Source: a virus
Reading direction: 5' to 3' (one strand)
DNA length: 64,000 nt
Virus record (IMG/VR): IMGVR_UViG_3300047160_018755
Coordinates: 64,001 to 128,000 of that record
The notes under the pieces were generated by a model that did not search any database, was not told where the DNA came from, and saw nothing but the letters and a program-made list of their open reading frames with translations. Positions within the stretch are counted from its first letter, which is position 1, and each line of letters opens with the position of its first letter. The translations under genes and the position numbers were made by a program. Positions 9,568 through 44,790 of the stretch are shown piece by piece.

Positions 9568-9952
9568 GCTGATAGGTCCGCTCGCGGTGGCAATTGGCGC
9601 ACACGAGATCACATTTGGCAATTTCTGCTAGAATCTTGGACCGAGAGCCGTACTCACTCAACATGGCGACGCCGGCTACCTTCTTCTCTCCCGGACGATG
9701 ATCCCAGTCCATCACGTACGGAGGGTAGGCGACTCCACAGTCGGAGCACGGCTTCCCAGCTTTCAGGGACCGAGCGAAAGCAACGATCTCTTTTCTGTGA
9801 ACCTTCGCCTTCTGTAGGTATTTCCTCTTGTTCTTGCGGTAGTGCTCGTCCTTGTACGCCTTCTGGCACGATCTACAGAACGGCTGGAGCCCGTTCCTCT
9901 TCTTAGAAAACTCAGAATCTGGCTTCGGACCACACTTGGAGCAAATTGCCAT
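9530..9952 (-). CDS. HNH homing-type endonuclease
   Basis: CSKC..CRSC N-terminal Zn finger; CSDC...DWDH...CDLVCANCHRERT; lower GC; AATCTT 6 nt before ATG. Confidence 0.85.
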   Translation of the reverse strand: MAICSKCGPKPDSEFSKKRNGLQPFCRSCQKAYKDEHYRKNKRKYLQKAKVHRKEIVAFARSLKAGKPCSDCGVAYPPYVMDWDHRPGEKKVAGVAMLSEYGSRSKILAEIAKCDLVCANCHRERTYQRSSTSTGKTRAF

Positions 9953-9979
9953 GTTTTCAAGATTGTGATCCGATGAAAG

Positions 9980-10051
9980 TAGCCTGTGAGGGTGCCGCCC
10001 CCTCTTTGCCGCCTTGAAAGGGCGGAAGCCTAGCTGTTGACCGAACAGGCC
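9980..10051 (-). tRNA. tRNA-Glu(TTC), atypical T-loop
   Basis: CCGCC-CTTTCAA-GGCGG anticodon arm; T-loop GGCGGCA. Confidence 0.7.
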
Positions 10052-10115
10052 GTGAATCCTCACTAAACTGCCATATCTCACCGCAAAGTGAGGATTGATA
10101 ATTTAGTGAGGTATG

Positions 10116-12013: not shown

Positions 12014-12133
12014 TTACTTCAGGGTGGCTTCTACTTTGGCGCCGCCAGCCCACCCCATGCCGGCAGCGCACACGTTCGCCTCGGCCTTATTGGCCTCCGC
12101 GATCATGACGTTGACGTTGGTGTTGGTGAGCAT
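12014..12133 (-). CDS. Putative leader peptide of tRNA operon 1 (39 aa)
   Basis: MLTNTNVNVMIAEANKAEANVCAAGMGWAGGAKVEATLK; TAATCT motif and GAGG upstream; 26 nt before tRNA-Asn. Confidence 0.65.
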   Translation of the reverse strand: MLTNTNVNVMIAEANKAEANVCAAGMGWAGGAKVEATLK

Positions 12134-12265
12134 GACTGGAACCCTCAGTAGATTAGGACTCGAAAACCGATCCACTACACTTCTATCGAATCTCGACGGA
12201 GAAAGCAAGCGAATACGTACATCCCCGCATTGCTTTTTCTGGCGTAACCTGTAGGGTGACGCGCC

Positions 12266-19413: not shown

Positions 19414-19795
19414 TGCTCACGAAGCTCCTGAACCCCATGGGGATCAGGCTCACGAACGCGAGCGCCGCCTGGATCGTCCTCGGCACCCTTCTTTCACTCG
19501 GTCTGCACGTGGCGTTCTACGGGACGCTGCTCCACTTCGTCATCAAGTTCTGGTAGGAGGCACATGTCGTTCGTTCCGAAGATCAAGAAAGCGAAGCGCA
19601 AGGCCATCGCCCGTCGTTCGGGCAAGACGATCGCGTCGGCCATCGACCGTCTCAACGCGAAGCTCACCAAGCCCCACCAGTTCCCGGTCCACGAGAACAA
19701 CCAGCTCCACAAGACCTCAGCGGCGATCGCCGAGGACGCCCGCCGTCAGGAGCGCCTGATGGACCGCAAGCGCTGGAGCCACGCGGGCTGATCGG

Positions 19796-32876: not shown

Positions 32877-33012
32877 CAGGTATCCCTCCTGACAACCAAG
32901 ATTAAGAGCGGAACAAAAAAGAAGGAAGGGTCAGGTCCCGCACCCTCTCCGTTTTCTGCGTTACCGGAGACTCCCGTGCAGTAAGGGATTGTGAGGTGAA
33001 GGACCTGATTTG

Positions 33013-33394
33013 TGGACCCGCGGGGAGTCGAACCCCGATGTCGGAAACTTTGCGATCGAGCTTGTACGTGCGTTTCCTCGTTTTCGGGGGCTAGGGATCG
33101 AGGTGTCCCGGACTACGGCGCCCTCCACCACCTGGTTTTGCTGACCAGGAACAGTTGGTTTCCCTCTGTAGTTGTTTCTCAGGCGGCTACTAAGGGGCCT
33201 CACCGTCTGAGATTCGATTAAGCCGCGAGCGCGCGAGCGCCGTAGCCACCGAAACCGTTCGCCTCGATCAGATCGAAGGGAACGTCGAACTCATCGTTCG
33301 CTTTTCTTTTTTGGTCTTCTTTTTACGAGGCCTGATGACCAACCTCGGCACGCGTCTCAGTCCCTCTGTTCCCGGTCGATGCCGGTTCGGGCCC
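33013..33394 (-). ncRNA. ssrA: tmRNA
   Basis: 5' GGGCCCG-AACCGGCATCGAC; 3' GGGGTTCGACTCCCC-GCGGGTCCA with G3:U70; tag ORF 33301-33218 ANDEFDVPFDLIEANGFGGYGARALAA*. Confidence 0.92.
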
Positions 33395-34105: not shown

Positions 34106-34220
34106 CAGACCGCTCGCTTCATCTCTTTCAACCTCTGCGCCGTGCGCAGGTCGAACTGATGCCCACGGAGCCCTCGCCGTCGAAGAAACCGGCTACGTAG
34201 CGAGGATCAACCCTTGACAC
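34105..34220 (-). pseudogene. Internally deleted LAGLIDADG endonuclease relic
   Basis: VSRVDPRYVAGFFDGEGSVGI starts at the rtcB stop; out-of-frame tail AQRLKEMKRAV* ends in a TGATG overlap with the next gene. Confidence 0.65.
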
Positions 34221-35463
34221 AGAGGACTTGCCTCAGCGTGTGGACGATCTCGACCAGGTCTTTCTGGTTCTCCATGACTTGGTCAATGTTCTTGTAGGCC
34301 GAGGGGATCTCGTCCAGGACTCCGGAGTCCTTACGGCAGCAGACACCCTTCGTCTGCTCGGCGAGATCCTCGACCGTGAAGGTCCTCTTTGCCTGCCCGC
34401 GAGACATCTTGCGCCCGGCCCCATGGGAAGCCGAGTTGAAGGAGTCGGGGTTCCCGAGCCCGCGGACGATGAACGACTTCGCTCCCATGCTGCCCGGGAT
34501 GATCCCCAGGCGGCCAGCCTCAGCGTTGATGGCCCCCTTGCGGGTGACCAGGACGTTCTCGCCGAAGTGAGTCTCCTCGGCGACGTAGTTGTGATGCGCA
34601 AGGATCGGCTTCTCGAACGTCACCTCCAGCGAGCCGCCCCAGAAGTCCGCGAACGTCCGCTTCAGGATGTCGAACATGACCATGCGGTTCAGCATGGCGT
34701 ACTCCTGCGCCCAGAACAGGTCGTGTCGATACGCCGTCATCTCCTTCGTTCCGGAGAGGAAGACCGCCATGTCCGGATCCGGGATGCGCTCGTTGTGGAT
34801 CAGGCCACGCGCGATGTCGATGTGGATCTCGGCCAGCTCCTTGCCGATGTTGCGCGAGCCCGAGTGCAGCATGAGCCACACGCGCGGCTCGTGCTTGTAC
34901 TGGTGCCACTCGCCGCAGTTGTCCTGACCGCAGTCGTAGATGCCGTTGTCCAGGCACACCTCGATGAAGTGGTTGCCGCCACCGAGCGTACCCATCTGCT
35001 TCTTCGCCTTCGCGAAGTCCACGCGCTCGCCCTGGTGCAGGTCCTTGAAGCGATCGAAGAGCTTCATGTGCTCGACGGCAGTCGCGTGGTCCGAGAAGTG
35101 GAAGACCGCCCGATCGTGGGCGTTGAAGCCCACCGGGATCGCAGCCTCGATGGCCGCACGCATCGGCTCCAGGTTGTCCGGGAGGTCCGAGGCGACGAGA
35201 TTCGTACGGATCGCGCCCATGCCACAACCGATGTCGACGCCCACCGCGGCCGGCGCGACTGCATTCTTCATGGCGATGACCGAGCCGACCGTACAACCTT
35301 TCCCAGCGTGGACGTCCGGCATGACGGCCACGTGGTGGTAGACCCACGGGAGCTTCGCGACGTTCGACAACTGGTCGAGCGCCATCGAGTCCACTTCGTG
35401 GATCGGTGCCCAAAGCTTGACCGGGACGAGCTGCCCGGCTTTGTTCATTTCCGAAAGAGACAT
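34207..35463 (-). CDS. rtcB: RtcB RNA ligase
   Basis: MPDVHAGKG, VDIGCGM, GTLGGGNHFIE, HSGSR, HHNY, SHGAGR. Confidence 0.95.
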   Translation of the reverse strand: MSLSEMNKAGQLVPVKLWAPIHEVDSMALDQLSNVAKLPWVYHHVAVMPDVHAGKGCTVGSVIAMKNAVAPAAVGVDIGCGMGAIRTNLVASDLPDNLEPMRAAIEAAIPVGFNAHDRAVFHFSDHATAVEHMKLFDRFKDLHQGERVDFAKAKKQMGTLGGGNHFIEVCLDNGIYDCGQDNCGEWHQYKHEPRVWLMLHSGSRNIGKELAEIHIDIARGLIHNERIPDPDMAVFLSGTKEMTAYRHDLFWAQEYAMLNRMVMFDILKRTFADFWGGSLEVTFEKPILAHHNYVAEETHFGENVLVTRKGAINAEAGRLGIIPGSMGAKSFIVRGLGNPDSFNSASHGAGRKMSRGQAKRTFTVEDLAEQTKGVCCRKDSGVLDEIPSAYKNIDQVMENQKDLVEIVHTLRQVLCVKG

Positions 35464-37189
35464 GATACTCCGAGACGGATGAAGTGGAACAGAAGGATCA
35501 CCGGCATCGCCGGCAGGAGACAGGTCTCCAGATGCGCGTCGAAGAACCACGCACCGATGTAGAGCCACGCGATGCAGAACACCACGTAGGCGAGGATGAT
35601 CAGAACCGCGAGCATCACGGCTCCTCGGGGAGCCACGTCACGCGGTACGTGGAGTTGAGCGTGTCGAACTCGAAGCCGTCGACGGTCTTGACGACCTCCT
35701 TAATGACGCTCGTGCGGGCGAGGTTGCCGTTGTCCTTGTACAGGCAGAAGCACCCCTCGACCCGAGGGTCGTAGTAGGTGTGCCCGAGCATGGACTTGTG
35801 ACGCTCCTCGACCGGGTGATTCGACTCGACGAGATCGAGCCGGCACCGCCGCCATTCACACTTGAGCTTCTCCATGAACGTACCTTACCTCACTTCCCGT
35901 CGATCGTCCAGGACTTTCGTTCGGCCCCCTTCTCGCCGTACTCCTCGGACTCGATCCAGACGTCCTTGGTGTGGTCGCCGTTCGGGTCCATCTTCCAGAA
36001 GCCCCACTTCTTGCCCCGATTCCAGCCCACGACCCAGGACAGCGTCGGGCCAATGAGCTTGACGATGTGGACGTGACCCTCCGGGTTGTGCAAGGTTGTG
36101 CCGACGCGCGCCACGTTGACACGGGGGTTGCCTGGCCTGCCGTAGCCGCCCTCGCGGGCGGGCACGCGCGGGTAGTAGACCTCCTCATCATAGCCGTTCA
36201 TGAGGATCGTGGTCGTGAAGGGCCCGGGGTGGTCATGCGGGTCGCGCCCCTCGTCGGGGAGCAGGATCAGGTGGAGGAACCGCGGCCGGTACCACTTCTG
36301 CTTCGGGGTCATAAACCAGCGCCGCAGGTAGAGCTTCCCCTCAGGCGTGAAGATGTCGAGGTGAGGCCAGAGCGCCGACATGAGGTGGACGAAGGTGGCC
36401 TTGTCGAAGAAGAACGCCACCAAGATGATCGGCGAGATGGCGACCGCGAAAAGCGCCTTGAACACCGACCAGATCGTGAACAAGTACTCCCAGCTGTAGA
36501 GCAGCGCGAGAACGACCAGGCCGCTGAACATCGCGAAGGACATTAGCTGATCAGCTCGTCCTTCGTCTTCCCAGACGACGGGGTGGTGGGAGCAGACGGC
36601 GCCGGGATGTCACCGCGACCCACCAGCGTCTGGTAGGCCGGCCCGATGTAGTTCTGGTAGACGCTGTTGATGGCGAGGACATCTTCGATCGTCGGCGACT
36701 GCTCGGCGCCACTGTTGTTGACGACCTCCTCCGCCATGTCGCAGGCGAACATCAGGTCCTCGAACAGCATCAGTCGGGCTTGCGTCTCGATGAGAGGGCC
36801 GTGCTTCCCGGGCTGGCCCTTGAGGTCGTTCAGGCGTTGCGTGAGCTGATCTTTCAGACTGCTCATAGTTTCCACTCTTTCGGCTTGTGTCCTGGGATCT
36901 TGAATTGCCAATGGTGAATCTTACACTGTTCCCCCGGCGGGATGCCAGGAAAAACGTACTCGCTCGTTCGGTGTCCGCGGATCCCGACCGCCTTCGAGGT
37001 CAGCTTGGACTCGCATTCGATCCAGAACCAAATCGACCTCCGGAACGGGTTGTGGACGGTGATGTGGCGCTCCCACTCGGGAGACGCATGTTGGGGTACG
37101 ACCAAGATCGAGATCTGGTCGGTGATGGCCGGCTGCGGGTGCTTCGCTGGGGCGAAGGCCAGCAACGTGGCAATCAGAAAGGACTTCAC
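35460..37189 (-). other. Hypothetical genes, including a TM plus cupin-like protein (35890-36543) and an exported protein (36863-37189)
   Basis: YLRRW...HDHP...HIV cupin-like His motifs; signal peptide MKSFLIATLLAFAPA. Confidence 0.55.
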
Positions 37190-37208
37190 GGCCCATTTCT
37201 ATCGAATC

Positions 37209-37237
37209 TTGACAACCACGCGAAGATCTGGCACTCT
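37209..37237 (+). promoter_or_regulatory. sigma70-type promoter
   Basis: TTGACA-17nt-CACTCT, back to back with a GATTCGATAG motif on the minus strand. Confidence 0.6.
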
Positions 37238-37470
37238 TGGTGCAAGATGAACAACGACGAACGCACGCATCGGTACGCCATGATGGGCGTGGTCGCCTAC
37301 GTCCAGGAGCGGATCATCATGTTCGAGAAGGACCGCCGCCAGCTCCCCGAGATCACCATCCTGGGCCAGCTGGAGTGGGAGGTCTTGGGGGCCAACATGG
37401 ACGAGGACTTCTCCATCGCCGGCATCCCCTGCGTCCCGGACCTAACGACCCCGTTCGGCGTCTTCTTCCG

Positions 37471-37890
37471 ATGAAGATCGCCGTCGTAGGGGCCCGAGCC
37501 TTCCCCAGCCGGGAGAAGGTGCAGACGTTCGTCCGCTTCCTTCCCGGAGACTGGGAGATCGTGTCCGGAGGGGCTCCGGGCGTCGACACTTTCGCCCAAG
37601 ACGCCGCTGCCGAGCAGCACCGACCCTACACCGTGTTCTACGCCGATTGGGATCGCGTAGGACGCGCTGCCGGCATGATCCGTAACACTCAGATCGCCAA
37701 CGAATGCGACGCGCTCGTAGCGTTCGTCCACGGCCCCTCGAAGGGCACCATGGACACCGTCCGCAAGGCCGGCGTCGCCCACAAGCCCATCTGGGTCATT
37801 ACCGTGGACGACGATCTCCCCACTTGGCAGGAGATCGAAGCCAAGGTCCAAGACTACCAGAGACGGCTCAGGGCTTTCCGTTCTGCCTGA
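37471..37890 (+). CDS. SLOG-family (DUF2493/YspA-like) protein
   Basis: IAVVGAR, VSGGAPGVDT, AAGMIRN, SKGTMDT. Confidence 0.85.
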   Translation: MKIAVVGARAFPSREKVQTFVRFLPGDWEIVSGGAPGVDTFAQDAAAEQHRPYTVFYADWDRVGRAAGMIRNTQIANECDALVAFVHGPSKGTMDTVRKAGVAHKPIWVITVDDDLPTWQEIEAKVQDYQRRLRAFRSA

Positions 37891-38671
37891 GGTAGAGAAG
37901 GTACTTGCCCGGGGGGCCGTCGATCACCACGTCGACGGCACCGCGCTGTTGGGCCTCCTCCCAATCCAGCCACCACTCACGTCCACCTTGGATACGCGTC
38001 ATCACCTCGGGGACCTTCGCGTTCATCCGATGGGTCACCCACTCGACGTAGGCTCGGGTAGCGACGCGGATCGTAGCCGCAGAGTTCTCCACCCTCAAGT
38101 CGGTCAAGCGCATGCCGGGCGAGACCATCAGCGACACCTGGTGGATCATGAGCATCGAACGCTTGGTCATCACGCGGTGGTCGCATGACTGGAGCACATA
38201 CATGCCCATGCTCGCCGACGTACCATCGACGACACAGACCACCTTGAACGGAGCCGCCTCGATGGCGCGCGAGATCTCATGTCCATCATCCATGCTACCG
38301 CCAGGCGTGTTCAGCTCGACCATGACGAGGTCGGCGCTGGCCTCGACCGCGGCCTCCATGAAGGCCTTGAACTTGCCCGCAGCGTCGTCGTCGATACTCT
38401 CGGAGAAGCGGTAGTAGGGGACACAGGGGTGCGTGTCACACTCGATCTTGGGCTTCTTGGGCGGCTCGGGCCCCAGAAGGTCCATCAGATTGATGTCCTC
38501 GGGCTCCACCTCGGTCGGCTCCGTGCTTGGAATCGCCGGAGGCGGCGGGGCCGTTTTGGTAGGAGCCGGTGCCATGATTGGCACAAAAGGCGGTGGCTGG
38601 GTCGGCTGGGGTGGCTTGGCGAAGGCCGGAATCGTGAGGAGCATCGACAGAGCAACCAGGGCAGCTTTCAT
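37868..38671 (-). CDS. ClpP-like Ser protease with signal peptide
   Basis: LNTPGGS, SASMG nucleophile, LMIHQ; MKAALVALSMLLTIPAFA signal; Pro-rich linker. Confidence 0.8.
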   Translation of the reverse strand: MKAALVALSMLLTIPAFAKPPQPTQPPPFVPIMAPAPTKTAPPPPAIPSTEPTEVEPEDINLMDLLGPEPPKKPKIECDTHPCVPYYRFSESIDDDAAGKFKAFMEAAVEASADLVMVELNTPGGSMDDGHEISRAIEAAPFKVVCVVDGTSASMGMYVLQSCDHRVMTKRSMLMIHQVSLMVSPGMRLTDLRVENSAATIRVATRAYVEWVTHRMNAKVPEVMTRIQGGREWWLDWEEAQQRGAVDVVIDGPPGKYLLYLRQNGKP

Positions 38672-38828
38672 GCGCAAAACCTCCAACTCTATTTCTATCG
38701 AATCTTTCGAAGAAACGCAAGTAGGATCCGTAAGCTACGAAACGGGCGGCGCCCGGGTCGATGTTCGGGAGAGGGAACCATCCAGACCGCGGGCGCCGCC
38801 ACCTTGGTGAGACTCCAAGAAGATTCGG

Positions 38829-38899
38829 TTCCCTCGCACCGATTCGAACGATGATCTGACGGGTCAAGGCCGTCGGTCCTGCCGTTAGACGACAAGGGA
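38829..38899 (-). tRNA. tRNA-Gln(TTG)
   Basis: GACGG-CCTTGAC-CCGTC. Confidence 0.85.
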
Positions 38900-38912
38900 G
38901 TATCGGACAATG

Positions 38913-38985
38913 TGCCGCCGGAGGGACTCGAACCCCCGCCCTTCCCGTTCGAAGCGGGTCGCTCGTCCAGTCGAGCTACAGCGGC
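38913..38985 (-). tRNA. tRNA-Arg(TCG)
   Basis: Loop CTTCGAA. Confidence 0.85.
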
Positions 38986-38986
38986 A

Positions 38987-39058
38987 TGGCCTCTCTGTCA
39001 AGAGTCGAACTTGAATTCCGGCCTTCGCAGGGCTAGATGGGATCCACTCCCCAAAGAG
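38987..39058 (-). tRNA. tRNA-Arg(GCG), atypical D-arm junction
   Basis: CTCTTTG/CAGAGAG, loop CTGCGAA, CCA; lacks U8. Confidence 0.6.
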
Positions 39059-39059
39059 A

Positions 39060-39133
39060 TGGTACGAGATGCTGGAATCGAACCAACGTCAGCCGCTAAT
39101 CGGGCAGCCGCACTACCATTGTGCTAATCTCGC
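39060..39133 (-). tRNA. tRNA-Ile(GAT)
   Basis: Loop CCGATTA, CCA. Confidence 0.85.
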
Positions 39134-39134
39134 A

Positions 39135-39208
39135 TGGTTGCCTCGGATCGATTCGAACGATCGTCGCCGGTTTCAGAGACCGGAGTCCTGCCGCTAGACG
39201 ACAAGGCA
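39135..39208 (-). tRNA. tRNA-Gln(CTG)
   Basis: CCGGT-CTCTGAA-ACCGG, CCA. Confidence 0.9.
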
Positions 39209-39217
39209 ATGTATTTG

Positions 39218-39288
39218 AGCTACTGGAAGGAATTGAACCCTCATTTCTGCCGTACGAAGGGAGTGTCCTGCCGTTGAACGACAGTAGC
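39218..39288 (-). tRNA. tRNA-Thr(CGT)
   Basis: Loop TTCGTAC; one mismatch in the anticodon stem. Confidence 0.75.
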
Positions 39289-39293
39289 ATCTG

Positions 39294-39364
39294 AGCCGAT
39301 CGAAGGAATTGAACCCTCGTGAACTGCTTACTGGGCAGTCGTCCTACCGTTGAACGAGATCGGC
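39294..39364 (-). tRNA. tRNA-Thr(AGT)
   Basis: ACTGC-CCAGTAA-GCAGT. Confidence 0.75.
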
Positions 39365-39366
39365 AT

Positions 39367-39455
39367 TGGTGGGCTACCCAGGAATCGAACCTAGCTGGAA
39401 CGTAAAGGACGCCTGTGTTACAGACAGGCCCGCCTCCATAGCGGTCTAGTAACCC
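39367..39455 (-). tRNA. tRNA-Tyr(GTA)
   Basis: Loop CTGTAAC, long variable arm, CCA. Confidence 0.85.
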
Positions 39456-39501
39456 AAACCAGTGACATGAGCGACTATTCAATTTTCAGAGAATCTTTCG
39501 G

Positions 39502-39576
39502 GGTGACCGGTGGGACTCGAACCCACAATTTGACTGATTCACAGTCAGCCGTGTCTACCAATTTCACCACGGCCAC
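39502..39576 (-). tRNA. tRNA-His(GTG)
   Basis: Loop CTGTGAA, C73. Confidence 0.85.
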
Positions 39577-39578
39577 AG

Positions 39579-39649
39579 TCTGGGTGACAGGAATCGAACC
39601 TGCATAACCTGGTTCCGGGCCAGGGAGCTAACCAATAGCCTACACCCAG
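39579..39649 (-). tRNA. tRNA-Pro(CGG)
   Basis: CCTGG-CCCGGAA-CCAGG. Confidence 0.8.
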
Positions 39650-39682
39650 AGATCGGGGCGCACGGCGAGGTTGCGTGTCTTG

Positions 39683-39755
39683 CGCTGCTGGCGGGATTCG
39701 AACCCGACCTCACGCGATAGACAGTCGCGCAGCCTCACCAGATGCTTACAGCAGC
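39683..39755 (-). tRNA. tRNA-Asp(GTC)
   Basis: Loop CTGTCTA, G73. Confidence 0.85.
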
Positions 39756-39763
39756 AGAGCTTG

Positions 39764-39835
39764 TCGCACCCGCAGGAATTGAACCTGCGCGCCCGGGATT
39801 TCAATCCGGTGCTCTACCAACTGAGCTAGGGTGCG
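39764..39835 (-). tRNA. tRNA-Phe(GAA)
   Basis: Loop TTGAAAT. Confidence 0.85.
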
Positions 39836-39873
39836 TTCTCGATCGTTTGTGCCGGGCTTCCCGGCTTGTCGCT

Positions 39874-40014
39874 TTACTTGATCCCGGAGGGATCGAAGCG
39901 ATCGAGCGCACCCTGTGCTGGGCGCTGGTGTTGCTGATGGCGCGGATAACGCACGATCCGGCCACCGGTCGTAATGCCGGTTCGAATCGTGGTGTATGTG
40001 GTCGCGGTCAGCAT
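39874..40014 (-). CDS. Putative leader peptide of tRNA operon 2 (46 aa)
   Basis: MLTATTYTTIRTGITTGGRIVRYPRHQQHQRPAQGALDRFDPSGIK; shares TAATCTACTGAGNGTTCCA with the operon-1 leader. Confidence 0.65.
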   Translation of the reverse strand: MLTATTYTTIRTGITTGGRIVRYPRHQQHQRPAQGALDRFDPSGIK

Positions 40015-40147
40015 TGGAACACTCAGTAGATTAAGTCTGCCTCAGACGATCGTTGGAGTCAAGAAAAAAGAGGAGCCCGATCCTGTGGGCCCAGATTGTA
40101 CTTCTCTTCCCGTAGCCGTACGGGCTCCTCGTGTACCTTCTATCGAA

Positions 40148-40570
40148 TCACTCGCGCTTCGAGGGCGGAGATCCCGCGCACTCCAGGACCGCCCAGCACT
40201 CGTTCAGGAACGTCTGGACGTGATAGAAGCTCCAGTCGCCGGCCCAGTCGTGCTCCTCGAAGAACGTGCGCGCCGCGGCCTTGTTGTCGAACCACCGCAC
40301 GCCGCTCTCGATGCTGCCGGCCAGCTCCATCACCTCTTCCTTGGAGTCGCAGGCTTCCATCGCGTCGCAGCCGCTGCACGAGCCGTAGCCGATCGAGACG
40401 AAGCCGTAGCGGTCGCCGTCCTGGATGAGGTAGAAGAGGTCGCCCTGGTAGTCGCCCGCGCGTTCGTAGACGACGGTCTTACCGAGCGCGTCCACGATCT
40501 GCTCGTAGCTCGGGTAGGCCTTGCCGTAGTCCGTGTCGGGTCCAAACAGCTCTTCGTAGGTCTTGTTCAT
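40148..40570 (-). CDS. Conserved phage hypothetical protein
   Basis: GDYQG...GYGSCSGCD motif; GAGGA RBS. Confidence 0.7.
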   Translation of the reverse strand: MNKTYEELFGPDTDYGKAYPSYEQIVDALGKTVVYERAGDYQGDLFYLIQDGDRYGFVSIGYGSCSGCDAMEACDSKEEVMELAGSIESGVRWFDNKAAARTFFEEHDWAGDWSFYHVQTFLNECWAVLECAGSPPSKRE

Positions 40571-40629
40571 GGCGATCCTCGTTTTCTTTCTATCGAATCT
40601 AGGAACCGAAAGCAAGAACTATCGAATCG

Positions 40630-40701
40630 TGCCCCCGCCGGGATTCGAACCCGGAGCTTCCTGGTTTGAGCAGGCTGTCTGTGCCGTTGAACTACGAGGG
40701 C
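40630..40701 (-). tRNA. tRNA-Leu(CAA), short variable loop
   Basis: Loop CTCAAAC, A73, 4-nt variable region. Confidence 0.75.
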
Positions 40702-40702
40702 T

Positions 40703-40779
40703 TGGTACCCGGAGCGGGATTCGAACCCGCAACCTCCGCGTTCTGAGCGCGTTGCCTCTGCCGATTGAGCTACCCGGGC
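40703..40779 (-). tRNA. tRNA-Leu(CAG), short variable loop
   Basis: Loop CTCAGAA, A73, CCA, 5-nt variable region. Confidence 0.8.
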
Positions 40780-40784
40780 GTGAG

Positions 40785-40869
40785 TGCGATCGACAGGACT
40801 CGAACCTGCACGCCCGTTACGGGCACCGGACTCTCAATCCGGCGGGTCTACCAATTCCCCCACGATCGC
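40785..40869 (-). tRNA. tRNA-Leu(GAG)
   Basis: CCGGA-TTGAGAG-TCCGG, long variable arm. Confidence 0.9.
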
Positions 40870-40889
40870 GTATGTCGGCGCCGAAGCGC

Positions 40890-40920
40890 AAAAATGCTGT
40901 ACTCGCTTACGCGAGCAGCA
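40890..40920 (-). terminator. Attenuator-type terminator overlapping the Leu leader ORF
   Basis: TGCTG-CTCGC-GTAA-GCGAG-TA-CAGCA-TTTTT. Confidence 0.75.
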
Positions 40921-40951
40921 ACGACAGACGGGATAGCAAGCGGGTGAACAT
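40907..40951 (-). CDS. Leu-rich leader peptide MFTRLLSRLSLLLA
   Basis: 6 Leu in 14 codons; TAATCTT upstream; stop codon lies in the terminator loop. Confidence 0.75.
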   Translation of the reverse strand: MFTRLLSRLSLLLA

Positions 40952-41121
40952 TGGTACTCGGAAGATTACTATCGAATCTAGGGAATGTCTAGAACAAAAT
41001 TCCGACAACCAAGCCGACGCCGAAGGTGACCGCCGCGATGCACACGTAGTACATCACGACGGGCAGCACCCCGGAGTTCTGCGGCTGGTGGTCGCGGATG
41101 AATTTCAGCGGGTTGATCATG

Positions 41122-41904
41122 TCAGGGAGCGCCGACGATCGAATCCGCCATCACGTTGATGGCCCAGAAGTCGCTGGCGAGCCTCGGGTTCGTGAGGTAG
41201 GCGTACGGGATCGTGAAGTACCCGCCCATGCCCCAGCTCGCGCCCCAGCTGTTGCGGCAGACGAAGCGCTGAGTGGCGTCGTCGTAGCCCACGCAGAGGA
41301 CGGCGTGGCCGCCCATGACCCGCTCGCCCTTGGCCGGCATCGGGACGACGCCGGTCTGCGCGACAGCGTCACTCTCGAACGACTCGTAGACGGTGAATCC
41401 CAGAACGAAGGGCGTCTTCGAGACGATGCACGCCTTCATCGCGTCGAGCGTCTGCGGCACCGACTGGTAGTTGAGCGAGCGAGCCTTGAGAGCCTCGGTG
41501 TACGCCGCGGCGGAGGGCTTCGTGGAGAACGGGCCCGGATTCGCGTCGCTGTACGGCCAGAGCGTCTCGCTGCACACGCCGAGCGTGTTGATGGTCTTGA
41601 TGCCATCGCGGATCGCAGCGCCGGAGTCGGTCGACGTCGTGCCCTCCATGTCGCGCTCGTTGTAGTAGACGAACAGGCGCGAGACGAAGAAGTACGGGTG
41701 GAGCCCCTGCTTCAGAAGGTCGAACTGGATCGCTGCGGCGATGGCGTTCGCCGTGCAGCTGCCGAGCTGTCCCTGGTCCTGGATCTTGTGCGGACACATC
41801 TTCCGCAGGTCGAACTTCACCGGCAGAACCGTGCCCTCCGCCTTCTTGAAGACGTGGTCGCGGTGGTCTCGATGATCTGGCTTCCAGCCGTGCTTGCGTT
41901 TCAT
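41122..41904 (-). CDS. Papain-like C1A cysteine peptidase
   Basis: QDQGQLGSCTANA, GGHAVLCVGYDD, RNSWGASWGMGGY. Confidence 0.92.
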   Translation of the reverse strand: MKRKHGWKPDHRDHRDHVFKKAEGTVLPVKFDLRKMCPHKIQDQGQLGSCTANAIAAAIQFDLLKQGLHPYFFVSRLFVYYNERDMEGTTSTDSGAAIRDGIKTINTLGVCSETLWPYSDANPGPFSTKPSAAAYTEALKARSLNYQSVPQTLDAMKACIVSKTPFVLGFTVYESFESDAVAQTGVVPMPAKGERVMGGHAVLCVGYDDATQRFVCRNSWGASWGMGGYFTIPYAYLTNPRLASDFWAINVMADSIVGAP

Positions 41905-41912
41905 CGTGCTCC

Positions 41913-43023
41913 TCACTTCGCCCAGTCGGGCAGTCCGTTTTGTTCCGCGAGGTCTTCGACAGCGTACGCCGCCGCCTCGTACTTGTTCCCGAAGTAGGCT
42001 TCCATCGACGCCTGCGTGACGCCGATCTTGAAGAGGTCACGGAAGGGGAAGTGCACGATGGACTGCCACGCGTACTTCACCCACGACACGCCGAAGAAGA
42101 GGTTCGAGTCGTCCTGCGCGATGTGCACCCACTCGTGCACGCGAACGAACGGGTCGACGTCACCGGTCGGCTGCGCGTCGAGCGTCCAGTACCAGATCGT
42201 GGAGAAGAAGGGCCAAGGGATGGTCATCGCGCCCCAGCCGTGGTTCCACATGAAGCGGCCGACGGGGCCGCCGATCTCCAGCTCGATGACCCGGCTCTTG
42301 TGCGGGGGCTGGTTCTTGCGAACGCGCTTGATCCAGTTGAACATCAGTCGATCTCCAGTTCCTCGCCCTTGTCCTTGACCTCGATCTTCTCGGGCGCGGG
42401 CAGATCGGTATTGATGGCCTGGCGCTGGCGGCTCATCTCGGCCGTGTCGCCGCCGCCGACGGAACCGCCGTACTTCAGGGTCTGCATGTCGCTGTACGCG
42501 CGACCGCCGACGAACGCCGTGTAGATGCCGGTGACGCCCATGACGAGGTTGCCGAAGGCCGTCAGAGGCAGCCAGAAGCCGCCTGCGATGAGCACAGCCA
42601 CGCAGAACACCATCCCCGCGAACTTCTGGGACGAGAGGTGACCGAGGTCGAACCCCTTCTTGTCCTTGTTCTTGCCCATCAGCCGCCGAACACGATCTTC
42701 AGGAAGATGCCCAACGCCGCGAAGAAGAGGGACCCCGCAGTCGCCCCGACCTTGAGGATCAGCATCCGGCGCTCCCGACGCCTGGCTCGATCTGCTTCGA
42801 GATGCGCCTCAGCCTGCGCCTTGACCTTCTCCGTGGTCTCCAGCACAGTCACACGCTCGTGAAGCGACGCCACGGCGTCCAGCTTCTCCGCCAGCATCTT
42901 CACACCGTCGTCGATGCGGGTCTTCACGACCCCCAGATCGACCTTGACGTCTGTCACACCCTCTTCAAGGCGTGCGATGCGGTCCTCGTAAACTTCAACG
43001 AGCGCTGGGTTCTGGGGCGGCAT
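41913..43023 (-). other. Membrane-protein trio (41913-42344; 42344-42679 holin-like 2-TM; 42679-43023 coiled coil with C-terminal TM)
   Basis: Hydrophobic segments; late motif 6 nt before 43023. Confidence 0.5.
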
Positions 43024-43059
43024 ACACCCAAGATTGGGGTGCCGTTCGGGACAAAACCC

Positions 43060-44790
43060 TTAGGAGTCGCTGGGTACGGGGATCAAAGAGCCGTCCGCCT
43101 GGACCTCGTAGCCGAGGTGGTCGTAGATGCAGCGGACGCAGGCGATCATGCTGTCCTTCGAGGCGCGGAAGAAGCGCCCGATGAACTGCTTCGAGCCGCA
43201 GAGGTAGCACTTGTCGGTCTTCATGAGACCTTCGGTGGTGACCTTGGGGTAGCCGTACTCCTTGACCAGCTGGGACGGTGTCATGGCCGCCCCGGTCCCG
43301 GGCTGCGTGATCAGCTCCTCCTCGTCCCAGTCCATCGTCGACTCTTCGCTGATCACAACCCCGCCGCCTCCAGGGCCGCGTTGGCCTGGTCCTTGACGCC
43401 GCCGAACGCGAAGGCAGGGCCGGTGTGATTCGGGTCAGGATCCTGCCCCGTGCGGTAGAGGTAGTGGTGGCAAAACTCGTGCGCGAGGGCGCACGTCGAG
43501 AGCTTGTACAGCGTCGACCACGCCACCTGCGAGGTCTTCGCCTCCACCTCCGAGAGCCCCGCCACGCAGCGGCCGAAGTCGTCCTTCCAGGCCAAACCAG
43601 GCTTGCAGTTGAGCCCGGCGCCGCCGATCCAGGTCACGACCGGGGGCGCGTCCGTGCGCTTGTACGTGTCGTTCCAGATGATCTTGATGGCCTTGGCCAG
43701 ATCCGCGGCCGGCGGTCCGCTGACGGCGCCGTTCTTCGACTTGAGATACCAGACGACGCCGCCGACTCCGCCAGCGAGCGCGAGACCGATCAGAGCGAAC
43801 ACGAGCATGAAAACTCCTACTGAGCCTTGACTTTGGCTCCGTGCTTGGCGACGATGGCCTTGATGAGATCGGCGTGCAGCTGATACTCGACTTCGAGCAC
43901 CTGGAGCAGGGCCTTGTACAGCTCGTCCGTGAACATGTCCATCCCGCAGCGGTTGCACTTCGGGATCACGAACGAGGGTGGGACATTGATGAAGACCTGC
44001 GGGTAGTCCACGTTGTTGCTGCGGTGGATGTAGAACCTGCCGTCCTTCTGCGTGGGCACGGCTTTCCCGCCGCAGCCCTCCACGGCACAGTCGATCGTGT
44101 TCACAGGATTATCTCCTTCTGGCCGCCGAAAGCGCCACACTGGCTTCCACACTTTCCTCGGAATCCTCTTCGCCGGGAAGGGGCTTCCGAAAGCACGCGC
44201 TGAAGTCGAAATTGGACGAGCAGACCGTCACCGTGATCGTGTCCGCCCGCGGACCGTTCTCGACCCTGACCTCTTCCTCCTCGACCTCGAAGAACTCGGC
44301 GATGTCCGACAGAACCCTCAGGTCGACGTGGAAGTCGTCGTCTTGGATGACGTCCAAGTAGACCGACCCGTCTCCTTTGCCCACCCTCGCCCCCACGATG
44401 ACCGGGATCTGACAGGCTGCCGCGAGACCTGACACAAGAGCTTGAGGTGCGGCGGGGAACGAATCGTGGTACCGATGGATCATGTAAGGGGCCCTCCAGG
44501 TTCAGAGTCTAGCGGATCCGTTCGCGAAATGCAAGGGCCCATCGGCGCAAATTGCGCGGGAAGGTCTCGAACACCGCGTAACCAATGGGCTTTTTGGCCT
44601 TCATATACGCTTCCCAGCCAGCTTGCGTATAAACGACCATCCCGGAGCCCAGGACCATGGGCAGGGATCGGTCCGAAAACCCCGCCAGCGAGCGCGCAGC
44701 GCGCCACAGCAGCATCAGGGCGATGATCAGCGAACCCGGGAACAGGGCCAGGAAGACGCCGACGTGGAACAGGATGAGAGTCACCAAAGA
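43060..44790 (-). other. Hypothetical genes (43060-43356, 43353-about 43808, 43817-about 44104, 44109-44483, 44509-about 44793)
   Basis: Contiguous minus-strand ORFs. Confidence 0.5.

Follow-up and report, generated by a model that had tools for sequence, protein, structure and literature searches.

The DNA stretch analyzed here, referred to as the window, comprises 64,000 nucleotides (nt), i.e., bases 64001-128000 of a 182,279-bp IMG/VR virus record (G000:C1 in genome coordinates). The record carries direct terminal repeats and is estimated to be complete. Its guanine-plus-cytosine (GC) content is about 62%, and ARAGORN called 31 tRNAs and one transfer-messenger RNA (tmRNA) in the whole genome; the tmRNA and most of the window's tRNAs are backed by Rfam. 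No close cultured phage was found: the megablast match was confined to one tRNA-Phe, and tblastn identities did not exceed 33% among the matches listed. The element in question is a short open reading frame (ORF) that heads an operon of 12 tRNA genes, here called operon 2, and whose 3' end overlaps a conserved RNA fold. Whether this leader may act as a cis-acting sensor of tRNA supply is considered below.

Layout of operon 2 and composition of its leader

Operon 2 is arranged in the order upstream terminator, promoter-like site, TAATCT motif, leader ORF, spacer, 12 tRNA genes and terminator-like stem (Table 1). The upstream terminator belongs to a gene for a 140-amino-acid protein, for which no relatives were found in viral contigs; judged from its sequence, this terminator insulates operon 2 against transcription from upstream. 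The promoter-like site, recognized by visual inspection and homology, falls short of the sigma-70 criteria of the promoter scan; its assignment follows the relatives described below, which carry TTGCAC-17-TAGACT or GATTCGATAGAC at the equivalent place. The leader ORF starts 13-19 nt past the presumed transcription start, with the GAG of a putative ribosome-binding site 7 nt ahead of the ATG, and is separated from tRNA-Phe by a spacer of 38 nt. The order of the 12 tRNAs from Phe to Gln that had been proposed in the original prediction was the same in the ARAGORN output, and 9 of the 12 exceeded the Rfam gathering score, while Tyr, Arg-GCG and Gln-TTG were called by ARAGORN only. Past the closing stem, the next promoter motif of the GATTCGATAG type is located at 38704.

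Table 1. Features of operon 2, of its leader RNA and of the sister leader units. Positions refer to the window unless G000:C1 is given.
Feature	Position	Strand	Remarks
Terminator of the upstream 140-amino-acid gene	40064..40130	-	Long stem, arms 40130-40121 and 40079-40070, then T6; inner part called terminator-like by the tool
Promoter-like site	40034..40062	-	TTGACT 40062-40057, 17-nt spacer, CAGACT 40039-40034
Conserved 5' motif	40015..40033	-	Starts TAATCT; contains the weak GAG ribosome-binding site
Leader ORF	39874..40014	-	46 codons and TAA
5' long hairpin	39926..40025	-	Covers ribosome-binding site, AUG and codons 1-29 (variable Thr/Ile/Arg/Gln-rich half)
Hairpin M	39908..39925	-	GCGCC/GGUGC, within codons 31-36; 5 pairs, identical in 7 sequences
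Three-way junction P1/P2/P3	39838..39906	-	Spans last 10 codons, stop codon and 38-nt spacer
P1	39906-39899 with 39845-39838	-	CTCGATCG with CGATCGAG; closing stem, ends 2 nt ahead of tRNA-Phe
P2	39894-39889 with 39885-39880	-	GATCCC with GGGATC
P3	39865-39860 with 39856-39851	-	GCCGGG with CCCGGC
12-tRNA array	38827..39835	-	Phe, Asp, Pro, His, Tyr, Thr, Thr, Gln, Ile, Arg, Arg, Gln (ARAGORN)
Closing terminator-like GC stem	38738..38800	-	Arms 38800-38790 and 38755-38745, short T-run
Leu unit	40978-40870	-	GATTCGATAG, TAATCT, 14-codon leader with 6 Leu, hairpin with stop codon in loop, T5
Three tRNA-Leu genes	40869-40629	-	Directly past the Leu leader
Operon-1 unit	12014..12192	-	GATTCGATAG, TAATCT motif, 39-codon ORF 12133-12014; then tRNA-Asn and remaining operon 1
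Ser unit	G000:C1 ~15135-14957		14-codon ORF with 8 Ser ahead of tRNA-Ser; stop codon in hairpin loop
GATTCGATAG copies in the window (examples)	40149-40140, 40599-40590, 40628-40619, 40978-40969, 38704-38695, 12192-12183, 10973-10964	-	

The leader peptide had been predicted to mirror the amino acids of the tRNAs that it precedes. On recount, the ORF and its residue counts were exact: Thr (8), Arg (6), Ile (4), Gln (4), Pro (3), Tyr (2), His (2), Asp (2) and Phe (1) make up 32 of the 46 residues, and Asn, Glu and Trp are absent. For the statistical evaluation, the number of residues falling into the set of a leader's own tRNA block (start Met excluded) was compared with that of all ATG-initiated ORFs of similar length in six frames of the whole genome. 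For content of its nine-amino-acid set, the operon-2 leader ranked first among 418 comparable ORFs. Four leaders (Ser, Leu, operon 1 and operon 2) head 27 of the 31 tRNAs called by ARAGORN, and each was the single best of 301-418 ORFs for its own set. Together, 77 of their 109 residues match the set of their own block (31 of 38 residues after the start Met for the operon-1 leader). When the amino acids were relabelled with blocks of equal size, none of 10^6 trials reached 77, the best being 73. The claim that leaders 1 and 2 mirror different tRNA sets was borne out as well: the 17 amino acids can be divided 8:9 between the two operons in 24,310 ways, and no more than 2 of these equal the real split in their match to the leaders, the real split reaching the maximum possible score. 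A chance ORF was ruled out by these composition statistics together with the conservation described below.

At the codon level, 30 of the 45 sense codons after the start are readable by operon 2's own tRNAs, with A34 of tRNA-Thr(AGT) taken as inosine; 11 of the remaining codons can be decoded by other tRNAs of the phage, which leaves 4 that none of its tRNAs reads. By eye, the 5' half of the ORF appears C-rich and G-poor.

The leaders also share sequence upstream of their start codons. The 19-mer at 40033-40015 is identical at 18 of 19 positions to that at 12155-12137, as had been noted before. Only these two copies, ahead of the operon-2 and operon-1 ORFs, are present in the window and in the 182-kb genome, with 0 expected by chance. 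Its AATCT core is invariant in all seven operon-2 leaders known from DNA and is also found in the operon-1, Leu and Ser leaders. A search of viral contigs with the 19-mer gave no match.

Conservation of the leader and its RNA fold

Relatives were reached via a ClpP-like gene just downstream, first contig L119 and then L162, L163, L166, L167 and L169/L170; their ClpP-like proteins are 52-61% identical to that of this phage. The operon-2 leader was found at the equivalent place in all six related contigs, and this phage and the six contigs provide seven DNA copies. In addition, a leader-peptide search retrieved P0002, a protein of 42 amino acids from a contig of matching gene order that is available as a called protein only. 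In all relatives the Leu block and the Phe-to-Arg/Gln block both lie ahead of the ClpP-like gene, and each relative has a leader ORF of 42-60 codons between an AATCT-bearing 5' region and tRNA-Phe. The leader DNA of this phage is 84% identical to that of L119.

The pattern of variation is that of a coding sequence in several respects. The seven leaders are 42, 43, 45, 46, 46, 47 and 60 codons long, the net differences are all multiples of 3, and a local -1/+1 pair within 10 nt in the L119 leader restores the frame. Ten conserved codons (QRP, then GA(L/F)DRFD) contain nine variable columns, eight of them third positions and the ninth a first position (binomial P ~0.001), although this block was picked after viewing the alignment and some of its changes are also compensated in RNA pairs. 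At the peptide level, the C-terminal motif is invariant among the eight sequences, the variation being mostly synonymous. In most cases the synonymous codons can be read by one and the same phage tRNA (GAT/GAC, TTC/TTT, CAG/CAA, CTC/CTT); this also applies to a CGC/CGA change in a relative that has tRNA-Arg(ACG), if position 34 is taken as inosine. The N-terminal half drifts in sequence and stays rich in Thr, Gln, Ile and Arg. Over the seven copies, the fraction of residues within the operon-2 set is 0.54-0.74, compared with 0.21-0.37 for the operon-1 set. As judged from these alignments, the leader is a real and conserved element, and its ORF is probably translated.

Outside this group of contigs the element was not recovered. 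A search of 5.8 billion proteins for leader homologues away from the tRNA-linked position gave none, the two matches being the window's own peptide and P0002. Metagenome contigs yielded nothing with either the ClpP-like alignment or a degenerate pattern for the conserved peptide block, nor did genome contigs with the pattern, and of 30 matches to a 17-mer from P1/P2 only that in L119 was genuine. Contig L164 carries a lone tRNA-Leu without leader in the part of the record that was searched, and L165 and L168 are without tRNA array.

In-frame insertions of about 14-30 codons were observed in the operon-2 leader of L162 (8187-8369) and in the Leu leader of L163 (7429-7563). Both share the motif VGAVGQxGxRQ, as if a small module had moved between leaders.

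The leader RNA was predicted to fold into a long 5' hairpin, whose sequence is poorly conserved among the relatives, followed by the short hairpin M and a three-way junction of stems P1, P2 and P3 (Table 1). The nested stems that had been described at the ORF end are all three present in the minimum-energy fold. Compared with shuffled sequences, folding was more stable with z = -5.6 for the 192-nt leader and z = -4.2 for the 73-nt 3' module. A covariance model built from four copies recovered the remaining three and had no further match within about 170 kb covering the window and related loci. In the alignment of the seven 3' modules, which was fitted to the covariance model and favours the structure somewhat, 92.8% of the pair cells hold standard pairs, compared with 23-49% (maximum 48.5%) when the partners were slid. 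Five pairs, spread over P1, P2 and P3, carry changes on both sides, and none of 500 shuffles reached the observed pairing or covariation score.

Proposed sensing of tRNA supply and rival explanations

The best reading, to which we give about an even chance, is that the ORF and the conserved RNA fold overlapping its 3' end form a cis-acting tRNA-supply sensor heading the tRNA operon. Translation in vivo, an effect on tRNA output, its sign and its effector are what we infer here, as follows. A ribosome would load on the nascent leader and read the Thr, Arg, Ile, Gln, Pro, Tyr, His, Asp and Phe codons that are served by the 12 tRNAs. Its speed would set whether hairpin M and P1/P2/P3 form while RNA polymerase enters the array, and fold formation would in turn set the amount of tRNA precursor made or matured. 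The most sensible sign would be negative feedback, with slow decoding leading to more tRNA. The phage would thereby top up exactly those tRNAs that run short, e.g., after decay or cleavage of host tRNAs. Candidates for the effector are a ribosome at codons 34-46 that directly covers the junction, a factor-dependent stop, and processing next to tRNA-Phe.

In order to follow the ribosome's effect on the fold, a 28-nt ribosome footprint was set at each codon and the operon-2 leader was refolded. With stalls at codons 1-33, P2 and P3 remained at 0.99 or above and P1 at 0.78 or above, except for 0.37-0.55 at codons 27-29; such stalls disturbed only the 5' hairpin and, at codons 27-33, also hairpin M. 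Only a ribosome sitting directly on codons 34-43 abolished P1, while P2 disappeared with a ribosome at codons 38-47; codons for Gln, Asp, Arg, Phe, Asp and Pro lie in this stretch. For the Leu leader, the hairpin before T5 was weakened or removed when Leu codon 9, 11, 12 or 13 occupied the aminoacyl site of the ribosome, a modelled behaviour that fits a logic in which shortage leads to read-through. The Leu hairpin itself is kept in five relatives, with a compensatory change in L162.

A classical attenuator of the trp type was considered for operon 2 and rejected, as there is neither a terminator nor an alternative pairing. A T-box or other known riboswitch was likewise rejected: in an Rfam scan (E-value mode) of 36000-44000, only tRNA reached the gathering score, and the other matches listed all lie on tRNA genes, far below the cut-offs.

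Several of these results, and some others, weigh against a sensor. No U-tract follows any hairpin of the operon-2 leader in this phage or in the six relatives, P3 being followed by ACAAAC, and no terminator-like site was called between 40014 and 39835; ordinary terminators of this phage do carry T-runs. Ribosome-masked folding revealed no alternative pairing that could act as antiterminator, the domains being modular, and the operon-1 leader behaved in the same way. Most Thr, Ile, Arg, Tyr and His codons lie within codons 1-33, where stalls spare P2 and P3. Under simple occlusion, the fold would also be opened by a ribosome that finishes the ORF, which leaves the sign of regulation ambiguous. 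The ribosome-binding site of operon 2 is weak, consisting of GAG only. The U-run of the Leu hairpin is present in this phage only and absent from L119, L162, L163, L166 and L167. The sister leaders match their blocks by amino acid more than by codon, codons readable by their own tRNAs being 3 of 8 for Ser and 2 of 9 for Ala of operon 1. Gly is the second commonest residue of the operon-2 leader (6), and the Gly tRNAs sit in operon 1. Finally, L166 (690-2145) is without tRNA-His, tRNA-Tyr, tRNA-Thr(AGT) and two tRNA-Leu, and yet its operon-2 leader keeps two Tyr codons and one His codon, while a Cys codon is present in its Leu leader despite the lack of tRNA-Cys. The L166 mismatch could reflect recent deletions. 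The opposite case is found in L167, where the three tRNA-Leu are followed by a tRNA-Cys (Rfam, 34 bits) and a Cys codon has been acquired by the Leu leader (L167:400-444, 743-818); Cys codons are absent from the Leu leaders of those four relatives that possess three tRNA-Leu but lack tRNA-Cys. The evidence from these sequences for co-variation of tRNA set and leader is thin and mixed.

On the folding models, the effector is not a classical terminator/antiterminator pair. The original prediction of a genome-wide feedback system of tRNA supply is supported in one part, as four leaders are enriched for their own block. Its feedback part is tentative, as operon 2 has no intrinsic terminator and no ribosome-dependent alternative pairing was predicted.

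The lack of a terminator and of alternative pairing would also suit a structured 5' leader for processing by RNase P/RNase E, for stability or for processive antitermination, in which the ORF is translated incidentally or to keep the RNA unfolded and tRNAs are not sensed. This explanation gains from the facts that the most conserved part is an RNA fold with covariation, that P1 ends 2 nt from the 5' end of the tRNA and that the RNA module is specific to operon 2. However, it leaves unexplained why four leaders match their own tRNA blocks, why indels keep the frame and variation falls on third positions, and why the drifting variable half keeps a constant composition; we regard it as unlikely. 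Selection might instead act on a small conserved protein or arrest peptide through its C-terminal QRP..GA(L/F)DRFD, the resemblance to the tRNA set being secondary. The invariant motif of the eight peptides and their mostly synonymous variation would agree with this, but the peptide has no homologues beyond its tRNA-linked position, the motif overlaps conserved RNA pairs, and the three sister leaders follow the same composition rule while being unrelated in sequence. We consider such a protein function very unlikely.

The masking results bear on a further possibility, i.e., positive coupling similar to that of pyrBI, in which a ribosome close behind the polymerase up to the ORF end blocks the stop-proximal fold and allows read-through, whereas the fold would form when the ribosome lags. 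Good decoding would then switch the operon on, via general translation capacity or via phage tRNA function. In operons 1 and 2, the ribosome is indeed predicted to affect the stop-proximal hairpins solely by covering them directly when it stands on the final codons or on the stop, and in the Leu and Ser leaders the stop codon lies within the hairpin loop. Nevertheless, this sign makes little sense for a supply system, and no U-tract marks the operon-2 fold as a terminator. Moreover, the cognate codons of the Leu and Ser leaders themselves make the 5' arm of the hairpin, so that a stall there blocks the hairpin, too. We give positive coupling a slim chance.

Among known systems, the tRNA-supply sensor would have its closest counterparts in the multivalent attenuators such as the thrL and ilv leaders and in pheM-pheST, since operon 2 resembles a leader-peptide sensor in layout and content. 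In enterobacteria, the attenuators of amino-acid operons (thrL, Thr/Ile; ilvGMEDA leader, Ile/Val/Leu; trpL, hisL, leuL, pheL) likewise have a promoter-proximal short ORF rich in cognate codons over structured RNA upstream of the regulated genes, and several amino acids may be sampled by one leader. In contrast, the element described here belongs to a phage, samples nine amino acids, precedes tRNAs rather than genes for biosynthetic enzymes, and in operon 2 lacks a U-tract terminator and a predicted antiterminator alternative. In Escherichia coli, pheM of pheST, which encodes Phe-tRNA synthetase, is a leader-peptide sensor that controls a translation component for the same amino acid. It acts through a classical terminator on a protein-coding operon, whereas the products downstream of the phage leader are the tRNAs themselves.

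Rho-dependent leaders such as tnaC and mgtL of Salmonella mgtA offer a possible type of effector, as the position of the ribosome on the leader ORF decides on transcription without an intrinsic terminator; the operon-2 spacer past the stop codon, by contrast, is only 38 nt long and structured. pyrBI shares occlusion of a stop-proximal hairpin by the leading ribosome, the sole structural effect predicted in the phage leaders, but it senses uridine triphosphate by polymerase pausing, has a U-rich terminator and does not use leader codon content as its signal. T-box riboswitches are likewise leaders that act in cis and control translation-related genes according to the state of a specific tRNA; however, they bind uncharged tRNA directly without translation, and neither T-box nor any other Rfam cis-regulatory family matches at operon 2.

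A full-text literature search found no description of leader peptides ahead of tRNA genes in phages or cells. The reason why phages carry tRNAs is debated, the proposals being a match to codon usage, decay of host tRNAs and evasion of tRNA-cleaving defences, and to our knowledge the regulation of phage tRNA genes is essentially unstudied. If operon 2 is headed by a tRNA-supply sensor, the phage would gauge its decoding capacity codon class by codon class and respond to it, leader-peptide control would extend from amino-acid supply to tRNA supply, and a testable handle would be available on the tRNA shortages that phages meet in infection. The conserved terminator-less module would then be a new effector. 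More tentatively, large phages may possess a codon-resolved supply circuit in which each tRNA block is gated by a mini-gene sampling the amino acids of that block. Loss of host tRNAs, by decay after shut-off or by anticodon nucleases, would switch on the matching tRNAs; in this phage family, hairpin M and the three-way junction abutting the first tRNA would be the effector, a new module acting without a terminator rather than a switch of the trp type.

Sister leaders and neighbouring genes

The 10-mer GATTCGATAG, copies of which, followed by TAATCT and a short ORF, precede the four tRNA blocks with leaders (Ser, Leu, operon 1 and operon 2), occurs 26 times in the 182 kb. Nearly all are intergenic, usually followed by AA, and located 5-40 nt ahead of a start codon; from this distribution, the 10-mer is probably the phage's own promoter class. 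L119 has GATTC[C/A]GTAG in its place, and a relative carries TTGACT-17-TAGAAT at a site of this type. The combination GATTCGATAG-N(0-5)-TAATCT gave at least 116 matches in viral contigs, all AT-rich chance matches and none in a contig with more than two copies of the 10-mer. A search with the operon-1 leader matched solely a 100%-identical stretch of 64 amino acids on a 628-bp contig. One copy of the 10-mer (40130-40149, minus strand) overlaps the stop codon of the 140-amino-acid gene upstream of operon 2 and is directly followed by the strong terminator, so that a transcript begun there would stop within about 70 nt.

The tRNAs without leader are tRNA-Cys, two AGR-reading tRNA-Arg and, as the fourth, a doubtful Thr-GGT call. 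The latter, a tRNA-Thr(GGT) of 90 nt called by ARAGORN at 19612-19701 (minus strand), is without Rfam support, appears inside coding sequence and is probably a false call. Outside the window, at G000:C1 ~43100-43165 (plus strand), a tRNA-like 3' end (GGTTCGATTCC, then an acceptor-like strand) lies ahead of a GATTCGATAG promoter; neither ARAGORN nor custom scripts called a tRNA there. Directly upstream of tRNA-Arg(TCT) and tRNA-Arg(CCT), an ORF at 9568-10114 (minus strand) is AT-richer and has paired Cys motifs and several AGA/AGG codons. By these features, it could be a mobile endonuclease-type gene that travels with the two tRNA-Arg genes.

A Pfam scan of 18 ORFs left 16 without a family; the two matches were RtcB and Peptidase_C1. 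The gene of the RtcB RNA ligase (34207-35568, minus strand; Pfam E value 3e-125) adjoins the tmRNA (33010-33394, minus strand), whose tag peptide ends with ALAA. RNA-repair and ribosome-rescue equipment is located beside the tRNA operons, which was counted for the sensor as context. A relative of 167 kb has the same RtcB in an equivalent neighbourhood.

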